From contig DAIENX010000007.1 of the NCBI GenBank assembly GCA_027340875.1, forward strand, positions 1-64,000: a stretch of 64,000 nt of DNA, in the 5' to 3' direction. Shown piece after piece: positions 18,001 through 42,000 of the stretch; position 1 is the stretch's first letter, and every line of letters begins with the position of its first letter. The position numbers were made by a program. This DNA comes from Elusimicrobiota bacterium (lineage in GTDB: Bacteria > Elusimicrobiota > Elusimicrobia > Elusimicrobiales > UBA9959).

Positions 18001-21000
18001 CGCGAGGCCCTGCCCTTCTTCCCTGAGAACATCCGCAGTTCTTTCGCCGGCGCCGCGGCGGGGCGCCCGGAGCGTAGCCACCCGCCGGTCAGGCACCGCA
18101 ACAGCAGGCTCTGATCCGCTCCTATTCGAAGCAGAACATCTTCATTATCTTTTCCGAGAGCGGCGCGCAGGCCTCCGGGCCGCGCGAGGAAGCCGCGCGG
18201 TAGCGCCAGTCCTCCCCTTTGCCGGCCCTGACGGCGCGGACGAAGTCCAGCATTTCCGGGATCAGGCAGGTCTCCGGGTTCATCAGCGGGTTCCAGCACC
18301 TCTTCGGCGACGCGGCCGTCAGCAGCTTGTAATATTCGCCGCAGAACGCGGCCCCGGACTTCGGGCGGGCCAGCTCCGCCCAGCCGGAGCAGAAGCCGTC
18401 GTACTTATTCCTCCCGTCCCTGAGCGCGGCGTAGGCCGAGAGGTACGGCAGGGCCGCCTCCTCGCAGGTACGCTTGAGGTCCGGATGTATGGAGCTCAGC
18501 GGAGCGCAGCCCTCCAGCGAGCCTTTCGAGAGGGAGACGCAGACGCCGTACTCCGCCAGCGCGTCCCACAGGTGCTGCTCCGGCATATGCCTGGCGTCGC
18601 CGGAATAGTTCGCTATGACGGTGGATACGTCCACCTTCCGGCCGGCGCACCTGTCCTCGCCTTTCGGCTGCCCGCCGCCGTCGCCGCTGTTGCGGTACTC
18701 GCGCAGCGCGGTGATGGCCTTGCCGCCGCGCATGTTCTTCAGCGCGGCTACGGCGGCCTCGCGCACGCGCGGCGAATCGTCCTTCAGCGCCACTATCGCG
18801 GCGTCCACGGCCGCCGGCTTGTCGATCATACCGAAGGCTTCCACCGCGTAGGTCCTGGCCAGCGGGTCCCTGTCCTTCATCATCTCCAGGGCGGCCCCGA
18901 AGGCCTTGTCCCTGTCTATCTGCACCAGCGCCCGCAGCGCCTTGGTGCGCACGTAGATGCCGGGGTCGCCCAGCAAAGCCGATACCGGCTTATAAGTGGA
19001 CGGCTCCGCTATCCTGCCCAAGGCCTGGACGGCCTTCTCCCTTATCTGCTCCTCCGGGTTTCTGAGGCTCTTCACGAGGAAGTCGACGGCCCGCTTGTCC
19101 CCTATAACGCCCAGCACCTTTATCTCCCACAGCATCGCGGCCGGGCCGCTCCGCTCCGCCGCGCGCAGTATGGCGGGCACGGCGTCCCCGCCCATGTCCT
19201 CGAGCGCCCTTTCGGCGGCGCCCCTTAATTCGGACTCGTCGGAACCGAGGAAGCCGATAAGGGCGGTCACGTTCCTCTCGCCGCGCGCCTTTACCAGGGT
19301 ATTCCTGGCGGCCTGGCGCTTCTTGTCGTCCGGAGACTCGAGCAGGCGCAGCAGGGCCTTCTCGCTCTCAGCGTCCAGCGAGGCGGCGCGCACCTCGCGC
19401 ATCGCGGCCTCCCTGACGGACCTGGCCTGCGCCGCCGGGGCGGCGGGCGCTTCTCCGGCCCGCGCCGGGACCCCGGCCGCGGCCAGCGCTATAGGGACCA
19501 TCAGCATGCGCAATACGGTTCTCTTCATTTCTCCTCCTGGCGCTCCGGGACTTCAGGACCGTGGCAGTTCCACAGTTCCGAATCTTCTTATGTAGTCCGC
19601 GTACACGCCGTCGCACTCGCCGCGCATCGCGCAGCCGCGGCAGGCGGGTATACGCCTCCTCTCGGGAAGCTTCTTCCGGTCCGCTTTCCGGAAACGCCCC
19701 TTACCGGCCACGTACTGCCTGGCCTGGCGCTCGAACATCTCCACCCTGTCGCTGACCTCCCGGAAGAGGCACGGCACCGGCGCGTTTATCAGCGCGGCTT
19801 CCGGCTCCCCGGCGCGCAGGCATTCGATTATGACCGGCGCGGCGTCCTTCACCCTGGGGGTGTGCGGCATCTCCCCGGCCCGCTCTCCGACGTATATGAT
19901 GTTCCACTTCGTCATCCCCAGGCGTCCCAGCAGGGTCCTGATCCGCGGCAGGCGCGAGACGTTCTTCCTGACCACCGTGGTATTGGCCGAGATGTTGCGG
20001 AAGCCGGCGGCGCGCAGATTGGCCACGCCCTTCAGTATGCGGGCGAAGCCGCCCTTCGTGCCGGTGAGCCCGTCATGGACGGAAGCCCTGTCGCCGTGCA
20101 CCGAGAAGCGCACCTCGGTCACCCCCGCCTCCAGCAGGGCCGCGACGAACTTCCGGTCGGCGAACATCCAGCCGTTGGTGGTCAGCATGCGCTGCCTGAA
20201 CCCCAGCCTTTTCGCCGCCCCGAAGATCGCGAAAATATCCTTCCTCAGCGAGGACTCCCCCCCCAGCACGTCCACCGCCTCCGCGCCGGCCCGCCTGGCC
20301 TCCACCAGCTCCGCCAGTATGGCGCGGTGGCTCTTGTCCGGCGCCTTGCCGCGGTACTCCCTGTCCCAGCAGAAGCCGCAGGAGTTGTTGCAGGTGTAGC
20401 CGGTGATCAGCTTGAGCGACCTCATCGCGCCCCCCCGCGCTTCCGGCCGGCCGGGGCCTTCTTGAAGCAGAAATAGGCGTCCAGCGTCCTGCCTGACTTC
20501 CCGGCCCCGTCCCCGGCCGCGAACAGCACCGGCGCCATCGTCATGCCGGCGCGCCTCGCGTAGGCGACGAGCGAGAGTATCTTCTGCAGGGCCGCCGGGC
20601 GCCCTCCGGCGGCGTAAAGCCCGCAGATCTCCCGCATCGCCGGGGTAAGATCGCTTATTCCGCCGGTCTCGTACACCTTGTAGGCCTTCCTCCGGCCGGA
20701 GCCGGCGCCGCGCATCTCGTAATAGAAGCACTTCTTTTCCAGCCCCAGCCCCGCCATCGTCCGCTTCTGCCAGGGCGGCACGCGCAGCCCGGCCGGCGCT
20801 TCCCGCCTGAAATAGAGCTTGAAGTCGCGGCCGCGGCCCGGCGTCAGGTCCAGACAGACGGCCGACAGCGCGTCCAGGTCCGCCTTGGACGGAAGCCTCT
20901 TCAGGCCGCAGGCCCCGGAAAGCAGGCCGGCCTTCAACCGCCCGTCATAGACGGGATAAAGTTCCTCGTGGTAGACCTTCAGCCGCGGGGCGTTCTGGCC

Positions 21001-39000: not shown

Positions 39001-42000
39001 GTCGGTGACCATCTTCAGGGCGAAAAGCACGCCCATCAGCGCCACCAGCAGGCCGATAAGCAGCTTCGGGGACATCGCCCCGGGTCTGTAGCCTTTCCTC
39101 ATCGCGCTCACCATTGCCCGTGGCTGCCGTGCGAACCGTGCGAACCGTGCGAGCCGTGGCTGCTGTGCGAACCGTGCGAACCGTGCGAGGCGTGACTCAC
39201 GTGGCCCGACGCGTTGCCGCTGCTGTGGAAGTAGTTTGCATGCGCTAGCGCGTCAGCGTGCTCTGTCACCACTCCGACGGCGGTGGCTACCAGTCCGAGG
39301 ACGACCGCGGCCTTGACCACGTCGCTCTTGACTATCTTGCCCTCCTCGCTCGAAAGGAAGCGGGAAAGGTCTACCGACAGTTTCTTTTTCTGTTTTCCGG
39401 CCATATTTCGCCCCGTTCTCGGTCTATACGTGTATCCCGGCCGCTCCGGCGCTGCTGCCGGCCCAGGATTCGAACAGCTTCCTAACCTTCGGCTCGCGCA
39501 GCCGCGCGAACAGGTAGTCCATCACTCCGGTGTAGATCTCGCACCGGAAGTTGGGATGATGCATGTACAGGTCGTTGTGCTCCGAATAGTTGAAGACCGG
39601 GCATACGCCGCAGTAGGGCTTGTAGACGCAGGAGGAGCAGAGCGTCTGTATGTCCGTGACCGACGCGGTGACCACGCATTTCACCACTGAGCTCGACGCC
39701 AGGTCCGCGTAGGTCTCCTTCTTCAGGTCGCCCATGCAGAACGAATCGGTCCCCTCCGCCGCCAGCATGCGCCCCTCGTCGCAGGTGAAGACGCGGCCGT
39801 CGTAGTCGTAGGCGATCTGGCCTATCCCCGCCCCGCAGGGGGACCGGAGGTCCATGAAGTTCGGGTCGGTGCCGGTCAGGATCTTCCTCAGGAATATCCT
39901 GGCCGTGTGCTCGACCAGGGAGGCCTTCTTCTTCAGGTTCAGCTCTATGATGTAGTCCAGCGCCTTCGTGTAGAACTCTATGTACTCCCGCGCCGTGTAG
40001 CCTATCCCAGGCCAGGCCTTCTTCGCCGCGCCGAACGGATTGAGGAAGCGCAGGAAGATGGAGCGGGCGCCGATGCGGACGTATTCGTCCACTATGTCCT
40101 TGTGGCGCCCCAGGGACTGCTGCGTCACCGTGAGCAGGGCGTCCGGCCCGTTCTTGGTCCTGGCCGTGCGCTTCTTGATGGTCTTCCACCACTTCACGAC
40201 CTGGGCGTGGCTGCTGCCGCCGGTGGCCACCCGGTTCTTGTCGTGCAGGTCGGCGGGACCGTCCAGCGAGGTGCAGATGGCGACGTTGTGCTTGAGCAGG
40301 AAGTTCAGCCTCTCTCCGGTCATGGCCGACAGGTTGGTGACCAGGCTCAGGCTCACCTTCTTATCGAAGGTCTTCGTGCGGGCGGCGGCCTCGTTGACCA
40401 CGAACTCCAGCACGGGCCAGTTGAGCAGCGGCTCCCCGCCCTGGAACTCTATGGTGATGTTGTCGGCCGGGGAAGCGAAGATGGCGTCCAGCACCCTGGA
40501 GGCCGTCTCCCTGTTCATGTCCAGGCCGCGGCCGCTCCTCTTGGACGAGGCGTGGCAATACACGCAGTCGTGGTTGCAGCGCCGCGTCAGCACGGCTATG
40601 TGCAGCGCCGGGCCGGAGAAGAGGAAATGGTTCTTCTCGAGCCACCTCTCGGCCAGGCCGGAAAAGTCCATGTAGTCGCGGACGAGGCCCTTGCGGGAGA
40701 GGTCCTTGTACTCAGCCGAGTCCTTGTCCAGCTTGCCGGCCGCCAGCCGCGAGAAGACATCGCCGGAGATGAAGGCGTGCTCGCCTATGTCGTTGGTGAC
40801 CAGGTATTCGTCGCCCCACTTCTTGTAGCGCAGAAAACCGGTCTTCTTCGGGTCGAAGTCAATTCTTTCTTTTTGCTTTTCTGGCCTTCGCATTTTTGTT
40901 TTCTTCCCACGGTATGGCTATTCCCAGAGCATCGGTCTTGTAGTCGCCGCTCTCCGCCTCTTTCAGCAGCTTCTCGATCTCCTTCTCCAGCTCCGCGTCC
41001 AGCACCGGGGCGGCGGCCGCCGGTTCCGCGGGTCTGGGCTGCGCGGAAAGAAGGGCCCTGACCACTATCCTCTCGCGCAGGGCCTGGTTCACGGCCGAGA
41101 CCTTGAGGCGGAAAGCGTGGTGCAGCAGTTCGTTGCGGAACTCGCCCTCCAGGTCGCGGCCCGCCGGGAACTTGCCGTTCTTGGACTCCAGCACGGCCGA
41201 GAGAGCGCCGCCCTTGTCCTTGCCCAGCTTCACGTACGCGGCCTTGGAGAACGTGTATGCCGCGGCATAGACGCACTCGATAGGGTAAACGGAAAGATCT
41301 ATCTTCACCTGTATTTTCATGCTGATCCTCTAACGCAGTTTATCTCAACCTGCAGCAAAGCATTTCGCCAGTAGCCTGTATACCGCCGGGAGGGCCCATC
41401 TGGTACATCTGGTTGCCGACGCGGGCGGCCACTACGGCGGTCTTGGCGCCGAGACACATCGTGACGACGCCGTAAGAATAGCTCTGCCAGGAACAGTCCA
41501 GCGGGACCGTCGGGTCGGACCAGCGGGCCAGGCCGTTGCCGTCCGAGGTAAGCAGCCGGCCGTTGGCCTGCGTGCCGTCCTGCAGCTCGAAGCTGCCGAC
41601 CACGTGGAGTTTTGCGGCCGGGGAAGGGGTGCCTATTCCAACATTGCCGCCGTCCCTGGCCAGCAGGGTCTGGCTGGTGGTAAGTATGCTGACGTAGCCG
41701 CCGTAGGGGGCAGGGTAATAAGTGGTCAGCGTAAGCGTCTCGGAGCCGATGAAGCCCGGATGCCAGCAGATGAACATGAGGGCCATCAGCGCCACCACCG
41801 TCTTCCGGTGCGTCCTGCCGAGCCTGTCCAGCCAGGCAGGCAGGCCGGGCTGGTGAAGCCAGTCCAGCGAGAACCTTATAACGATATCGCGGTTATTTTT
41901 CATAGTCGCCGCCCCCGATAAGCGCGAAAAGCACATCCTTGCGCAACGGCCCCTACGGTCGGGACGCGTTGCATATCACACGGACCGCCACGGGCTTGCT

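Follow-up and report, generated by a model that had tools for sequence, protein, structure and literature searches.

Group VI nitrogenase-like (NFL) enzymes have been proposed to reduce a tetrapyrrole to a new cofactor (10.1101/765248; PMC13474568), and the second source describes the characterised NFL enzymes as all acting on small molecules. The window analysed here, a 64,000-nucleotide stretch of an Elusimicrobiota genome (GCA_027340875.1, contig DAIENX010000007.1), holds group VI NFL genes inside a run of His-Xaa-Ser (Hxs) peptide-maturation and radical-SAM genes. This raises the question of whether the NFL enzyme belongs to the Hxs pathway.

Structure and conservation of the gene run

An ORF listing with inspection of start codons confirmed the 22 consecutive minus-strand genes between positions 41,903 and 19,553 that had been described in the initial annotation (Table 1). 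The run does not open with the HxsD-like gene, as stated there, but with a gene for a conserved unknown protein (g01). Most related Hxs loci have a homolog of g01 upstream of their HxsD gene (35–81% identity, tblastn); the Atlas matches of g01 gave weak leads only. At the chosen starts, all 21 junctions were overlaps of 1–71 nt or gaps of 2–19 nt, whereas 20 of 21 had been counted as at most 19 nt. The junctions of the NFL genes were all overlaps (g10/NflHD, 8 nt; NflHD/NflK, 20 nt; NflK/g13, 4 nt). A 23rd gene starts 24 nt past g22. The locus is probably a single co-transcribed operon of approximately 22–24 kb; a look-up of RNA runs listed none that contains it.

The run was colinear with contigs of two further assemblies, G050:C58 (75–96% identity per gene) and G073:C15 from another genus (39–82%), which rules out an assembly artefact. 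The HEAT-repeat protein was present in G050 and was not seen in G073.

Table 1. Genes of the run and the adjoining HEAT-repeat gene, with positions in the window.
Feature	Position	Strand	Evidence or remark
g01, conserved unknown protein, 187 aa, one TM-like stretch	41340..41903	-	first gene of the run; no Pfam/NCBIfam family
HxsD-like protein, 153 aa	40859..41320	-	TIGR03976 48.2 bits, just below cut-off 50
HxsB radical SAM/SPASM maturase, 489 aa	39424..40893	-	TIGR03978 489.4 bits, cut-off 370
HxsA4 precursor, 98 aa	39108..39404	-	NF038313 64.4 bits, cut-off 55
g05, unknown protein, 349 aa, N-terminal TM-like stretch, 12 Cys	38065..39114	-	no family
g06, weak radical-SAM-like protein, 315 aa	37188..38135	-	Radical_SAM 21.6 bits, below cut-off 29.5; CxxxCxxC
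g07, HxsC-like radical SAM, 375 aa	36056..37183	-	HxsC4 94.8, HxsC 89.1 bits, both far below cut-offs
g08, HxsC-like radical SAM, 328 aa	35073..36059	-	HxsC4 83.8 bits
g09, HxsC-like radical SAM, 243 aa at chosen start	34345..35076	-	Pfam/NCBIfam profiles
g10, HxsC-like radical SAM, 339 aa at chosen start	33347..34366	-	Pfam/NCBIfam profiles
NflH-NflD fusion, group VI nitrogenase-like, 738 aa	31138..33354	-	Fer4_NifH 1.5e-65, Oxidored_nitro 1.1e-14
NflK-like subunit, 429 aa	29868..31157	-	Oxidored_nitro 141 bits, 5.5e-41
g13, HxsC-like radical SAM, 295 aa	28984..29871	-	HxsC4 123.5 bits
g14, HxsC-like radical SAM, 304 aa	28080..28994	-	HxsC 103.9 bits
g15, HxsC-like radical SAM, 309 aa	27148..28077	-	NCBIfam profiles
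g16, polytopic membrane protein, 403 aa, candidate FlaK/A24-like GxGD aspartyl protease	25932..27143	-	fold search, motif
g17, radical SAM, closest to HxsC/HxsC4, 316 aa	24985..25935	-	HxsC4 126, HxsC 106 bits
g18, radical SAM, 284 aa	24134..24988	-	Pfam/NCBIfam profiles
g19, 587 aa, two radical-SAM-like stretches	22378..24141	-	Radical_SAM, 2 stretches
g20, PapB/HxsB-like peptide-maturase-type radical SAM, 340 aa	21351..22373	-	PapB 143, HxsB 113.6 bits, both below cut-offs
g21, unknown protein, 309 aa	20422..21351	-	no Pfam/NCBIfam family
g22, HxsC-like radical SAM, 290 aa	19553..20425	-	HxsC4 92.1 bits
g23, HEAT-repeat protein, N-terminal hydrophobic stretch	18122..19528	-	HEAT_2 4.1e-29; possibly last gene of the operon

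Hxs, radical-SAM and NFL proteins

The HxsB gene of the run was the only one in the genome above the TIGR03978 cut-off. Translation of HxsA4 showed a basic N-terminus, a hydrophobic stretch, the nine consecutive H-x-S units reported earlier and then HGQW, leaving a GQW tail. Its stop codon is overlapped by the start of g05, which, like g21, had no Pfam or NCBIfam family in profile searches. The count of 13 radical-SAM genes held at the Pfam Radical_SAM cut-off; g06 was a weak 14th, and all 14 contained CxxxCxxC. The radical-SAM genes flanking the NFL genes on both sides had HxsC4 or HxsC as their top NCBIfam match. Relatives of several were found elsewhere: orthologs of g07 (44–48% identity) in NFL loci outside the family, orthologs of g15 (44–58%) adjoining NFL or Hxs genes and, at many loci, homologs of g17 (50–62%) next to NFL genes or HxsB.

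In a fold search, the top match of g16 was FlaK (3s0x_B; Z 11.5, rmsd 4.2, 174 aligned; next row Z 7.0). In the Atlas, g16 matched clusters partly annotated with PF01478 (features 0.94–0.95, TM 0.65–0.70). W-P-A-G-D-x-K was invariant in 20/20 homologs, for which Pfam support was weak (2/20 members, best E 0.036). In other families, homologs of g16 neighbour NFL genes together with g15 and g17. The protein is a candidate FlaK-like peptide-processing protease.

The fusion protein matched Fer4_NifH at residues 4–265 and Oxidored_nitro at residues 379–628, which, with the Oxidored_nitro match of its partner, bears out the earlier naming of a NifH-NifD-like fusion and a NifD/K-like protein. Its NflH part scored below every curated NifH/BchL/BchX/CfbC cut-off and keeps the P-loop and both cluster cysteines (C93, C129). 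Cysteines C342, C417 and C726 of the NflD part were conserved, and C42 of NflK was invariant in 10/10 sequences. The closest solved relative of NflK was NifK (1mio_B, E 1.6e-6). The NflK tree placed the window clade as sister to a mostly stand-alone clade of family f1; it was not nested among radical-SAM-associated NflK from other families.

Co-occurrence and linkage of Hxs and NFL genes

Among 401 sampled Elusimicrobiota genomes, HxsB and NflK were both common in the same three families only: f1 (HxsB 43/47, NflK 16/47), f6 (7/10, 2/10) and f8 (32/47, 18/47). Elsewhere HxsB occurred in a single f2 genome (1/118) and NflK in none. In support of a link within f1, HxsB exceeded the cut-off in 32/32 genomes with NflK and in 39/48 others. 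Nearly all members of the NFL-bearing clades encode HxsB, so genome-level co-occurrence is partly a lineage effect. We distinguished W-type HxsB, with at least 500 bits to the window HxsB, a threshold chosen after the scores had been seen. Across f6 and f8, NflK was present in 17/22 genomes with W-type HxsB versus 3/35 without (Fisher p 1.5e-7, an overstated value because the genomes are related). One of the three exceptions had a frameshift-split HxsB 1.8 kb from NflK and another a contig-truncated W-like HxsB. NflK was absent from 7 of 25 genomes with W-type HxsB, so Hxs systems function in its absence. Conversely, G633 (97% complete) and G083 encoded NflK, and HxsB was not found in them.

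Twenty NFL-less Hxs loci from 20 genomes contained g16-like membrane proteins (13/20), HemN-like radical-SAM genes (10/20) and H-x-S repeat ORFs (15/20), and most carried HxsC-like radical-SAM homologs. The numerous radical-SAM genes, together with the HemN-like genes and the membrane protein, therefore belong to the Hxs rather than to the NFL system. A W-type kit without NFL genes was seen on G002:C47.

W-type HxsB and NflK were both present in 18 sample genomes; they shared a contig in eight, 4.0–18.3 kb apart (8.3 kb in the window), and no same-contig pair was more than 20 kb apart. Besides the embedded form of the window, the NFL genes lay downstream on the same strand (G081:C10, G070:C43), upstream on the same strand (G030:C6) or in convergent orientation (G082:C33, G049, G056). 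In G081 and G082, a radical-SAM array separated NflK from an Hxs core about 18 kb away. The link in 3 of 26 related loci reported initially thus understated the support, its 10-kb flanks having been too short for such loci. Among f1 genomes with NflK, HxsB was within 20 kb in 14/32, on the same contig at 34 and 48 kb in two and on separate contigs in 16. Eleven NFL loci (10 genomes) had no Hxs gene within the up to 20 kb covered on each side.

Proposed role of the NFL enzyme

The embedding of the NFL genes, the W-type association and the short distances give comparative support to the earlier assignment of group VI NFL to an Hxs/radical-SAM pathway. We give about an even chance to the hypothesis that it is the ATP-driven tailoring reductase of an enlarged, W-type Hxs peptide pathway. 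Counting against this hypothesis are the small-molecule substrates of characterised NFL enzymes, the place of the window clade in the NflK tree, the NFL loci distant from Hxs genes and the genomes that have one of the two systems and not the other. For this pathway we infer substrate, chemistry, step order and export as follows. In the cytoplasm, HxsB with HxsD and about 12 HxsC-like radical-SAM paralogs would modify the 98-aa precursor HxsA4. The NflH part of the fusion would deliver ATP-driven, low-potential electrons to a simple [4Fe-4S] centre of NflD/NflK, which may reduce either a group installed by radical-SAM enzymes in the H-x-S repeat region or a moiety linked to that region. The FlaK-like protease g16 would process the product, which would act outside the cytoplasm together with operon proteins bearing N-terminal hydrophobic stretches (g01, g05 and the HEAT protein). 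Our searches found no publication stating an Hxs–NFL link. The orphan group VI class would gain a testable candidate substrate, a small His-x-Ser repeat peptide.

A tetrapyrrole substrate, reduced to a new cofactor as by DPOR, COR or CfbCD while the Hxs neighbours do a separate job, has homology on its side: the top NCBIfam matches were CfbC (222 bits), NifH, BchX and BchL for the NflH part and BchN/BchB for NflK, but the curated BchL/N/B, BchX and CfbC cut-offs were all missed by wide margins. Three HemN-like genes do lie near the run (12,246–13,709, 13,709–15,121 and 16,615–18,114), as annotated initially, although the third is on the plus strand; the minus-strand 512-aa ORF there (16,558–18,096) had no family. 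A B12-binding radical-SAM gene lies upstream (42,255–43,733), and the HEAT protein had weak CpcE/CpcF/NblB-type matches. Yet HemN-like genes are also found in half of the NFL-less Hxs loci, and no tetrapyrrole gene was among 46 ORFs scanned around six stand-alone NFL loci. HemB and HemC were present in G000, G050, G734 and G762, but neither was found in G073 (98% complete), where the operon is colinear. HemB was not associated with NflK in f1 (9/32 genomes with NflK versus 11/48 others, p 0.61), and genus g11 had NflK in 6/7 genomes and HemB in 0/7 (78–100% completeness). A tetrapyrrole might still be imported by the cell. These distributions make a tetrapyrrole substrate quite improbable and so weaken the reading that the initial annotation had disfavoured; the HxsA peptide it put forward instead is suggested by genomic context.

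The NFL enzyme may also serve the pathway without touching the peptide, as an ATP-driven, low-potential electron source or activator for the many radical-SAM clusters, or in a small-molecule step with g07, g08, g15 and g17 whose product HxsA would later use or carry. The same linkage data fit this role, which we consider unlikely, and radical-SAM enzymes require a low-potential reductant. Outside the family, orthologs of g06, g07, g08, g15 or g17 (at least 42% identity) lay within about 10 kb of NflK with no Hxs gene in the span at eight loci (L097, L098, L099, L110, L118, L120, L129 and L133). However, apparent radical-SAM sets of this kind proved to have an Hxs core about 18 kb off where longer stretches were available (G081, G082). 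NFL is missing from most Hxs clusters whose radical-SAM batteries are as large, and for electron donation NflH alone would suffice, whereas NflD and NflK, which bind the substrate in known relatives, are conserved along with it.

It is similarly doubtful that there is no functional link, the embedding being a chance insertion kept by descent where two lineage-typical systems meet in a variable radical-SAM-rich region. HxsB occurred in 71/80 f1 genomes, usually in 2–4 copies, so that any gene is more likely to lie near one. An unrelated YgeY block adjoins Hxs operons in several genomes, an example of inherited synteny; roughly one in two NFL loci of f1 is isolated, and three Myxococcota with Mb-size contigs (G101, G119, G131) hold HxsB and NflK 1.1–3.3 Mb apart. 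The embedded form itself was seen in just three genomes, including a near-identical pair. Against chance, the association is specific to one HxsB subtype and holds within families and within genus g37 (NflK in 10/11 genomes with W-type HxsB versus 0/6 without), and proximity was kept through at least four arrangements in three families. The start/stop codon overlaps flanking the NFL genes on both sides were preserved between G000 and G073 at 39–82% protein identity. By our estimate, for a few NflK loci in a 3–4 Mb genome, a 20-kb neighbourhood would arise by chance in about 5% of genomes, compared with the 8/18 observed.

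Organization of the operon

The window (GC content 0.62–0.71) contained a run of 22 consecutive minus-strand genes (g01 to g22, 41903 to 19553), as determined by ORF listing and start-codon inspection. With the first plausible start codon close to the stop of the preceding gene taken as the gene start, all 21 junctions were either overlaps of 1–71 nt or gaps of 2–19 nt. A HEAT-repeat gene followed behind the run after a gap of 24 nt. The initial annotation had described 22 minus-strand genes comprising a His-Xaa-Ser (Hxs) set, nitrogenase-like (NFL) genes and 13 Radical_SAM genes. 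This gene content was borne out, except that the run started with the conserved gene g01 and not with HxsD. The source genome (2.8 Mb, 112 contigs, 92% complete) had one HxsB above the cut-off and one NFL locus, both inside the operon. A search for sequencing runs with this organism returned four DNA runs from a single study and no RNA runs.

In the NCBIfam scan, HxsB matched TIGR03978 (489.4 bits, cut-off 370) and HxsA4 matched NF038313 (64.4 bits, cut-off 55). The translated HxsA4 contained nine H-x-S units in succession, followed by a GQW tail. The HxsD-like protein scored 48.2 bits with TIGR03976 (cut-off 50), and its gene adjoined HxsB upstream, a position that fits HxsD. No operon gene exceeded the cut-offs of the HxsC and HxsC4 models (TIGR03977, NF038332). 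The top HxsC-type scores were those of g17 (HxsC4: 126 bits, cut-off 500; HxsC: 106 bits, cut-off 268).

Features of the operon and its surroundings
Feature	Coordinates	Strand	Remarks
PALP enzyme	5324-6757		beside operon
Amino-acid-kinase-family protein	7013-8113		beside operon
ygeW-like carbamoyltransferase	10902-12194		beside operon
YgeY M20 hydrolase	15241-16431		564 bits; beside operon
ORF without family	16558-18096	-	512 aa; overlaps the HemN-like gene
HemN-like radical SAM	16615-18114	+	carries Radical_SAM
g16	25932-27143	-	403 aa; candidate protease
NflK	29868-31157	-	429 aa
NflHD (NflH-NflD fusion)	31138-33354	-	738 aa
HxsA4	39108-39404	-	98 aa
HxsB	39424-40893	-	
HxsD-like	40859-41320	-	
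g01	41340-41903	-	187 aa
B12-binding radical SAM	42255-43733	-	upstream of operon, gap ~320 nt
Radical SAM	44169-45656	+	upstream of operon
Flavin amine oxidase	45728-47263	-	upstream of operon

The radical-SAM genes and their surroundings

The Radical_SAM cut-off was passed by 13 genes and one further gene matched weakly; the motif CxxxCxxC was present in all 14. For g07, g08, g09, g10, g13, g14, g15, g17, g19 and g22, the top NCBIfam model was HxsC4 or HxsC (58–126 bits), with scores far under the curated cut-offs and ahead of those of MoaA, AhbD and NirJ. Since HxsC4 and HxsC were the best models, we infer that diverged HxsC paralogs flank the NFL genes on both sides. The product of g20 was of the PapB/HxsB-like peptide maturase type.

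Comparable gene sets also occurred without NFL. In tblastn maps of 20 Hxs loci, from 20 NflK-less genomes of the window's own family (f1, 80 genomes), HxsC-like radical SAMs were present in most loci, a g16-like membrane protein in 13/20, a HemN-like radical SAM in 10/20 and H-x-S repeat ORFs in 15/20. One contig (G002:C47) carried the kit of the window subtype (HxsB 55%, g17 60%, g15 58%) without NFL. The presence of radical-SAM and HemN-like partners in loci lacking NflK indicates that the battery is part of Hxs and not of NFL.

HemN-like genes near the operon, noted in the initial annotation, were indeed present, one of them on the plus strand rather than the minus strand. Since this plus-strand ORF carries Radical_SAM, it is the real gene and the minus-strand ORF that it overlaps is a shadow. 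YgeY adjoined Hxs operons in other f1 genomes as well, and the ygeW/ygeX-type block was syntenic across f1. The ygeW/YgeY block beside the operon thus seems to be inherited synteny rather than an Hxs component. It cautions that NFL and Hxs may in part lie close together through inheritance and not through selection.

Nitrogenase-like proteins

Oxidored_nitro (Pfam) matched both the D part of the NflHD fusion and NflK. The NflH part matched Fer4_NifH (1.5e-65) and contained a P-loop, C93 and C129; the two cysteines, which we take to be the equivalents of NifH Cys97 and Cys132, are consistent with the text of a 2026 review. Conserved cysteines in NflD were C342 (52/59), C417 (59/59) and C726 (54/59), and C42 of NflK was conserved in 10/10. 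Judged from these alignments, the 3+1 conserved cysteines would suffice for one simple Fe-S cluster, in agreement with the group VI description in the review (PMC13474568), and the NifD- and NifK-like partners probably lack most ligands of the P-cluster and FeMo-co. The proteins missed the curated cut-offs of CfbC (222 vs 402), BchX (177 vs 331), BchL (170 vs 345), BchN (54 vs 324) and BchB (38 vs 509), as well as that of NifH. The nearest solved chains were a nitrogenase-type Fe protein for the NflH part (9fmg_D, 4e-55) and NifK for NflK (E 1.6e-6). NflK was ~40% identical to that of locus L074 (GWF2_62_30, which the preprint 10.1101/765248 mentions by name), and the predicted membership of group VI is based on this level of identity to loci of genomes cited there.

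A quick-method NflK tree of 78 rows placed the window and the loci L070 and L071 in one clade (SH-aLRT 100), sister to a mostly stand-alone f1 clade (SH-aLRT 93). Movement of the whole supercluster between families as a unit was unsupported by this tree, because the window clade fell outside the radical-SAM-associated NflK of f8, another Elusimicrobiota family. The H-D fusion was also common in stand-alone f1 loci (821–833 aa). In three stand-alone Myxococcota loci (L145, L147, L149), NflH was separate and NflD (715–731 aa) had an N-terminal extension of ~300 aa without family.

A candidate membrane protease

The g16 protein had at least seven hydrophobic helices in a simple hydropathy scan and no Pfam match. 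In the ESM Atlas it adjoined clusters partly annotated as Peptidase_A24 (features 0.94–0.95, TM 0.65–0.70). The motif W-P-A-G-D-x-K was invariant in 20/20 homologs, and an N-terminal E-D...K-I-x-N consensus was also present. The Peptidase A24/GxGD family is characterized by a FlaK-like fold and two conserved acidic motifs, one of them GxGD. A wide VIA search of 48,161 chains with the AlphaFold model of g16 (pLDDT 70.9) gave the GxGD protease FlaK (3s0x_B) as the top match (Z 11.5, rmsd 4.2, 174 aligned), the next row having Z 7.0. PF01478 matched 2/20 homologs (best E 0.036). Against the PDB, a sequence-profile search was empty and no Foldseek match reached E 0.001. The structural model and the motifs point to g16 as a candidate FlaK/A24-type GxGD aspartyl protease, and it may supply the HxsA-processing protease still missing from the enlarged type of Hxs system. 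According to the report on the Escherichia coli system, HxsA is cut N-terminally and exported (PMC13128918), which is consistent with both the protease candidate g16 and the hydrophobic stretch in HxsA4.

Linkage of NFL and Hxs genes

Within f1, NflK was found in 32/80 genomes and HxsB above the cut-off in 71/80, mostly in 2–4 copies each. HxsB occurred in 32/32 NflK genomes vs 39/48 others (p = 0.0095, overstated since the genomes are related). NflK lay at most 20 kb from HxsB in 14 of the 32 NflK genomes; in two more they shared a contig, 34 and 48 kb apart, and in 16 they were on separate contigs. The embedded arrangement recurred, in tblastn maps of the fetched f1 stretches, only in G050:C58 (same genus as the window, 75–96% identity) and G073:C15 (another genus, 39–82%, colinear from g01 to g17). 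Elsewhere, NFL was located on the same strand upstream (G030:C6) or downstream (G070:C43) of the Hxs operon, convergent with it with the YgeY gene in between (G049, G056, G044), or in yet other arrangements (G007, G022, G038). Eleven NFL loci from ten f1 genomes had no Hxs gene in the sequence retrieved around them, at most 20 kb per side; these copies stand alone.

An NflK alignment scan with one genome per species yielded 65 loci with 10-kb flanks. Only seven of these had a true HxsB, with an identity of 40% or more (L070, L071, L073, L086, L091, L102 and, from Myxococcales, L124). This is close to the 3/26 NFL loci with HxsB within 10 kb that had been counted initially. L124 had HxsB and HxsD, and HxsA was not found in it. 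Several NFL loci in Deltaproteobacteria/Myxococcota MAGs and in Elusimicrobia of other families carried orthologs of g06, g07, g08, g15 and g17 (42–62% identity), often with a g16 homolog (28–45% identity). A candidate membrane peptidase that travels with NFL fits a peptide pathway. Whole-genome searches of genomes with such loci gave HxsB above the cut-off in 4/5 Elusimicrobia and 5/5 Myxococcota. A pattern scan of 20 NFL loci outside f1, with 10-kb flanks, detected no HxsA-like leaders or H-x-S repeats, bar one low-complexity false match. These flanks were too short, since longer stretches of two genomes (G081, G082) showed the Hxs core ~18 kb from the NFL genes. On G081:C10, a single strand encoded g01, HxsD, HxsB (49%), HxsA (24 repeats, GQW tail), SPASM genes, g22, g18, g15, g17, g06, NflD, NflK and NflH. 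G082:C33 carried this Hxs core and radical-SAM array too, convergent with an operon of several NFL sets.

A phylum sample of 401 Elusimicrobiota genomes was searched separately with the window HxsB and the NflK profile. HxsB and NflK were found in 43/47 and 16/47 genomes of f1, 7/10 and 2/10 of f6, 32/47 and 18/47 of f8, and 1/118 and 0/118 of f2; neither was found in the other families of the sample. We defined the HxsB subtype of the window (W-type) as matches of at least 500 bits (47–74% identity), a threshold set after seeing the data, in a score gap from 501 to 479. W-type HxsB was present in 25 genomes besides the window, and 18 of them had NflK. In the 57 genomes of f6 and f8, NflK occurred in 17/22 W-type genomes vs 3/35 others (odds ratio 36, p = 1.5e-7). 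The three exceptions had a frameshift-split HxsB (G656), a contig-truncated HxsB (G824, 51% identity) or no HxsB (G633). The split HxsB (G656:C76:12732-14029; profile positions 3–288 and 316–466 in two frames) was 1.8 kb from NflK; the split is due to a frameshift introduced by sequencing or to decay of the gene. In genus g37, NflK was present in 10/11 W-type genomes vs 0/6 with other HxsB types only. W-type HxsB and NflK shared a contig in 8 of the 18 genomes and were always near each other, with distances to the nearest NflK of 4.0 (G736), 8.2 (G073), 12.4 (G762), 14.4 (G778), 15.9 (G775), 16.4 (G558), 16.8 (G667) and 18.3 kb (G734), and none beyond; the other ten, with the genes on separate contigs, cannot be judged. 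The distance in the window, which is outside the 18, was 8.3 kb.

Of 401 sampled Myxococcota genomes, 144 had HxsB and 58 had NflK-like genes, with HxsB in 56/58 NflK genomes vs 88/343 others. One presumed sampling stratum, itself inferred, held most of both (HxsB 51/58, NflK 30/58), and within it HxsB occurred in 30/30 NflK genomes vs 21/28 (p = 0.004). The co-occurrence, considered as a strong link, was thereby reduced to mainly a clade effect with a weak residue. On Mb-size contigs of G101, G119 and G131, a simple HxsB-HxsA-SPASM cluster was 1.1–3.3 Mb from a stand-alone NflH/NflD/NflK set, so physical linkage of HxsB and NflK is not general. In other Myxococcota, HxsB was beside g15/g17 orthologs (G085, G088) or 3 kb from NflK (G089).

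Proposed function and alternatives

The most economical reading is that NFL serves an enlarged Hxs pathway as an optional tailoring enzyme, an ATP-driven reductase with the modified HxsA4 repeat region as its substrate, and we see about even chances for it. The sole clue to the chemistry, which is speculative, comes from E. coli, where HxsB/HxsC cause a change of +8 Da (+C, -4H type) on an SHRSS motif (PMC13128918); such a change would point to cross-links with unsaturated bonds, open to reduction by an enzyme like DPOR. That group VI NFL use ATP to reduce a ribosomal peptide, with heteroaromatic or unsaturated cross-links made by HxsB/HxsC-type radical SAMs on His-x-Ser repeats as targets, is a tentative and somewhat doubtful proposal. 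NFL could also serve the pathway without a peptide substrate, through electron supply or small-molecule chemistry; subtype co-occurrence would suit such a role too, and we consider it rather unlikely. The complete lack of a functional link between NFL and Hxs, which the stand-alone copies, the Mb-scale separations and the inherited synteny would favor and the tracking of W-type HxsB would not, appears improbable.

A tetrapyrrole substrate for group VI has been proposed from context in the preprint and the review (10.1101/765248; PMC13474568). HemB and HemC were both present in G000, G050, G734 and G762, and neither was found in G073 (98% complete, colinear operon). HemB occurred in 20/80 f1 genomes, 9/32 with NflK and 11/48 without (p = 0.61). 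In genus g11, 6/7 genomes had NflK and 0/7 had HemB, and no tetrapyrrole gene was among the 46 ORFs that surround six NFL loci standing alone. Tetrapyrroles might be taken up, so these results only weaken the tetrapyrrole reading; we regard it as unlikely.

If the tailoring of HxsA4 by NFL is real, it would be the first case of a nitrogenase-family enzyme acting on a peptide, and the expanded Hxs clusters seen in Elusimicrobia and Myxococcota would form a new class making exported, heavily modified repeat peptides. Should the link hold, nitrogenase-family chemistry would extend to peptides, and Hxs, so far only a four-gene phage defence, would have large housekeeping-like relatives. Group VI is among the NFL groups still without known function, and genome context has been of little help apart from the tetrapyrrole hint, according to the 2026 review (PMC13474568). 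The picture has changed in that the radical-SAM and HemN-like neighbours behind this hint are parts of the His-Xaa-Ser cluster, also present without NFL, that group VI NFL tracks one Hxs subtype, and that HemB was not found in most f1 NFL genomes. A full-text literature search, covering few subscription journals, returned no paper that ties NFL enzymes to Hxs or ribosomal peptides. The word 'peptide' does not occur in the preprint; locus maps in its supplement may show some of the neighbours (10.1101/765248). New here are the assignment of the radical-SAM and HemN-like neighbours to Hxs, the subtype co-occurrence and linkage counts, the HemB counts and the negative cases.

Comparison with known systems

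The HXS antiphage system HxsD-HxsB-HxsC-HxsA occurs in E. coli, Klebsiella and other Pseudomonadota, with D-B-C-A as the canonical order and an antiphage activity that relies on periplasmic HxsA (Li et al., Nat Commun 2026, PMC13128918). The operon shares with it an HxsB above the curated cut-off, an H-x-S repeat protein, an HxsD-like protein and HxsC-like radical SAMs. In contrast, its order is D-B-A, and ~12 diverged HxsC-like paralogs replace HxsC. Unlike the antiphage HxsA, HxsA4 is 98 aa long, has no peptidoglycan-binding domain and carries 9 repeats (up to 29 in relatives). Further additions are the NFL reductase, the FlaK-like protease candidate, a PapB-like maturase and proteins that are either membrane-bound or exported. 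Hxs was near-universal in f1, unlike a typical patchy defence system.

Group VI NflH/NflD/NflK were defined by Meheust et al. (2020, preprint 10.1101/765248). The window proteins resemble them in a NifH-like ATPase that has a P-loop and two cysteines for the cluster, in very diverged NifD/K partners with few conserved cysteines, in the many radical-SAM genes close by and in their occurrence in Elusimicrobia and Myxococcota MAGs.

As in DPOR (BchLNB), COR (BchXYZ) and CfbCD, a NifH-like ATPase is combined with a NifD/K-like catalytic part, and a plain [4Fe-4S] cluster, held by few cysteines between two subunits, probably forms the redox centre. Unlike in these enzymes, curated cut-offs were missed, H and D are in one chain and the context is a peptide-maturation operon. 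In operons for radical-SAM/SPASM peptide products such as PQQ, mycofactocin and ranthipeptides, a small precursor gene adjoins the SPASM maturase, and the same operon encodes a protease and additional tailoring enzymes. The operon is similar in its precursor gene by a SPASM maturase, its tailoring enzymes and its candidate protease. We know of no radical-SAM/SPASM peptide system that has so many radical-SAM paralogs or that includes a nitrogenase-like reductase.

Other conserved proteins and precursor peptides

No Pfam or NCBIfam family was found for g01, g05 and g21, even at E 5. The g01 protein has one TM-like stretch and a Cys-rich end; the ESM Atlas gave weak leads only (phage-tail-like trimer). 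It was the best conserved partner upstream of HxsD in f1 Hxs loci (48–81% identity).

HxsA4-like precursors (compared in loci L011, L013, L014, L016, L018, L020, L022, L025, L135, L136, L138-L140, L146 and L148) had a common leader (F-L-S/T-S-E-E-G-K...), a hydrophobic stretch and 5–29 H-x-S units. Their C-terminal tails followed the HxsB type, with GQW or GSW accompanying W-type HxsB and GSY or a Cys-containing tail accompanying the others.
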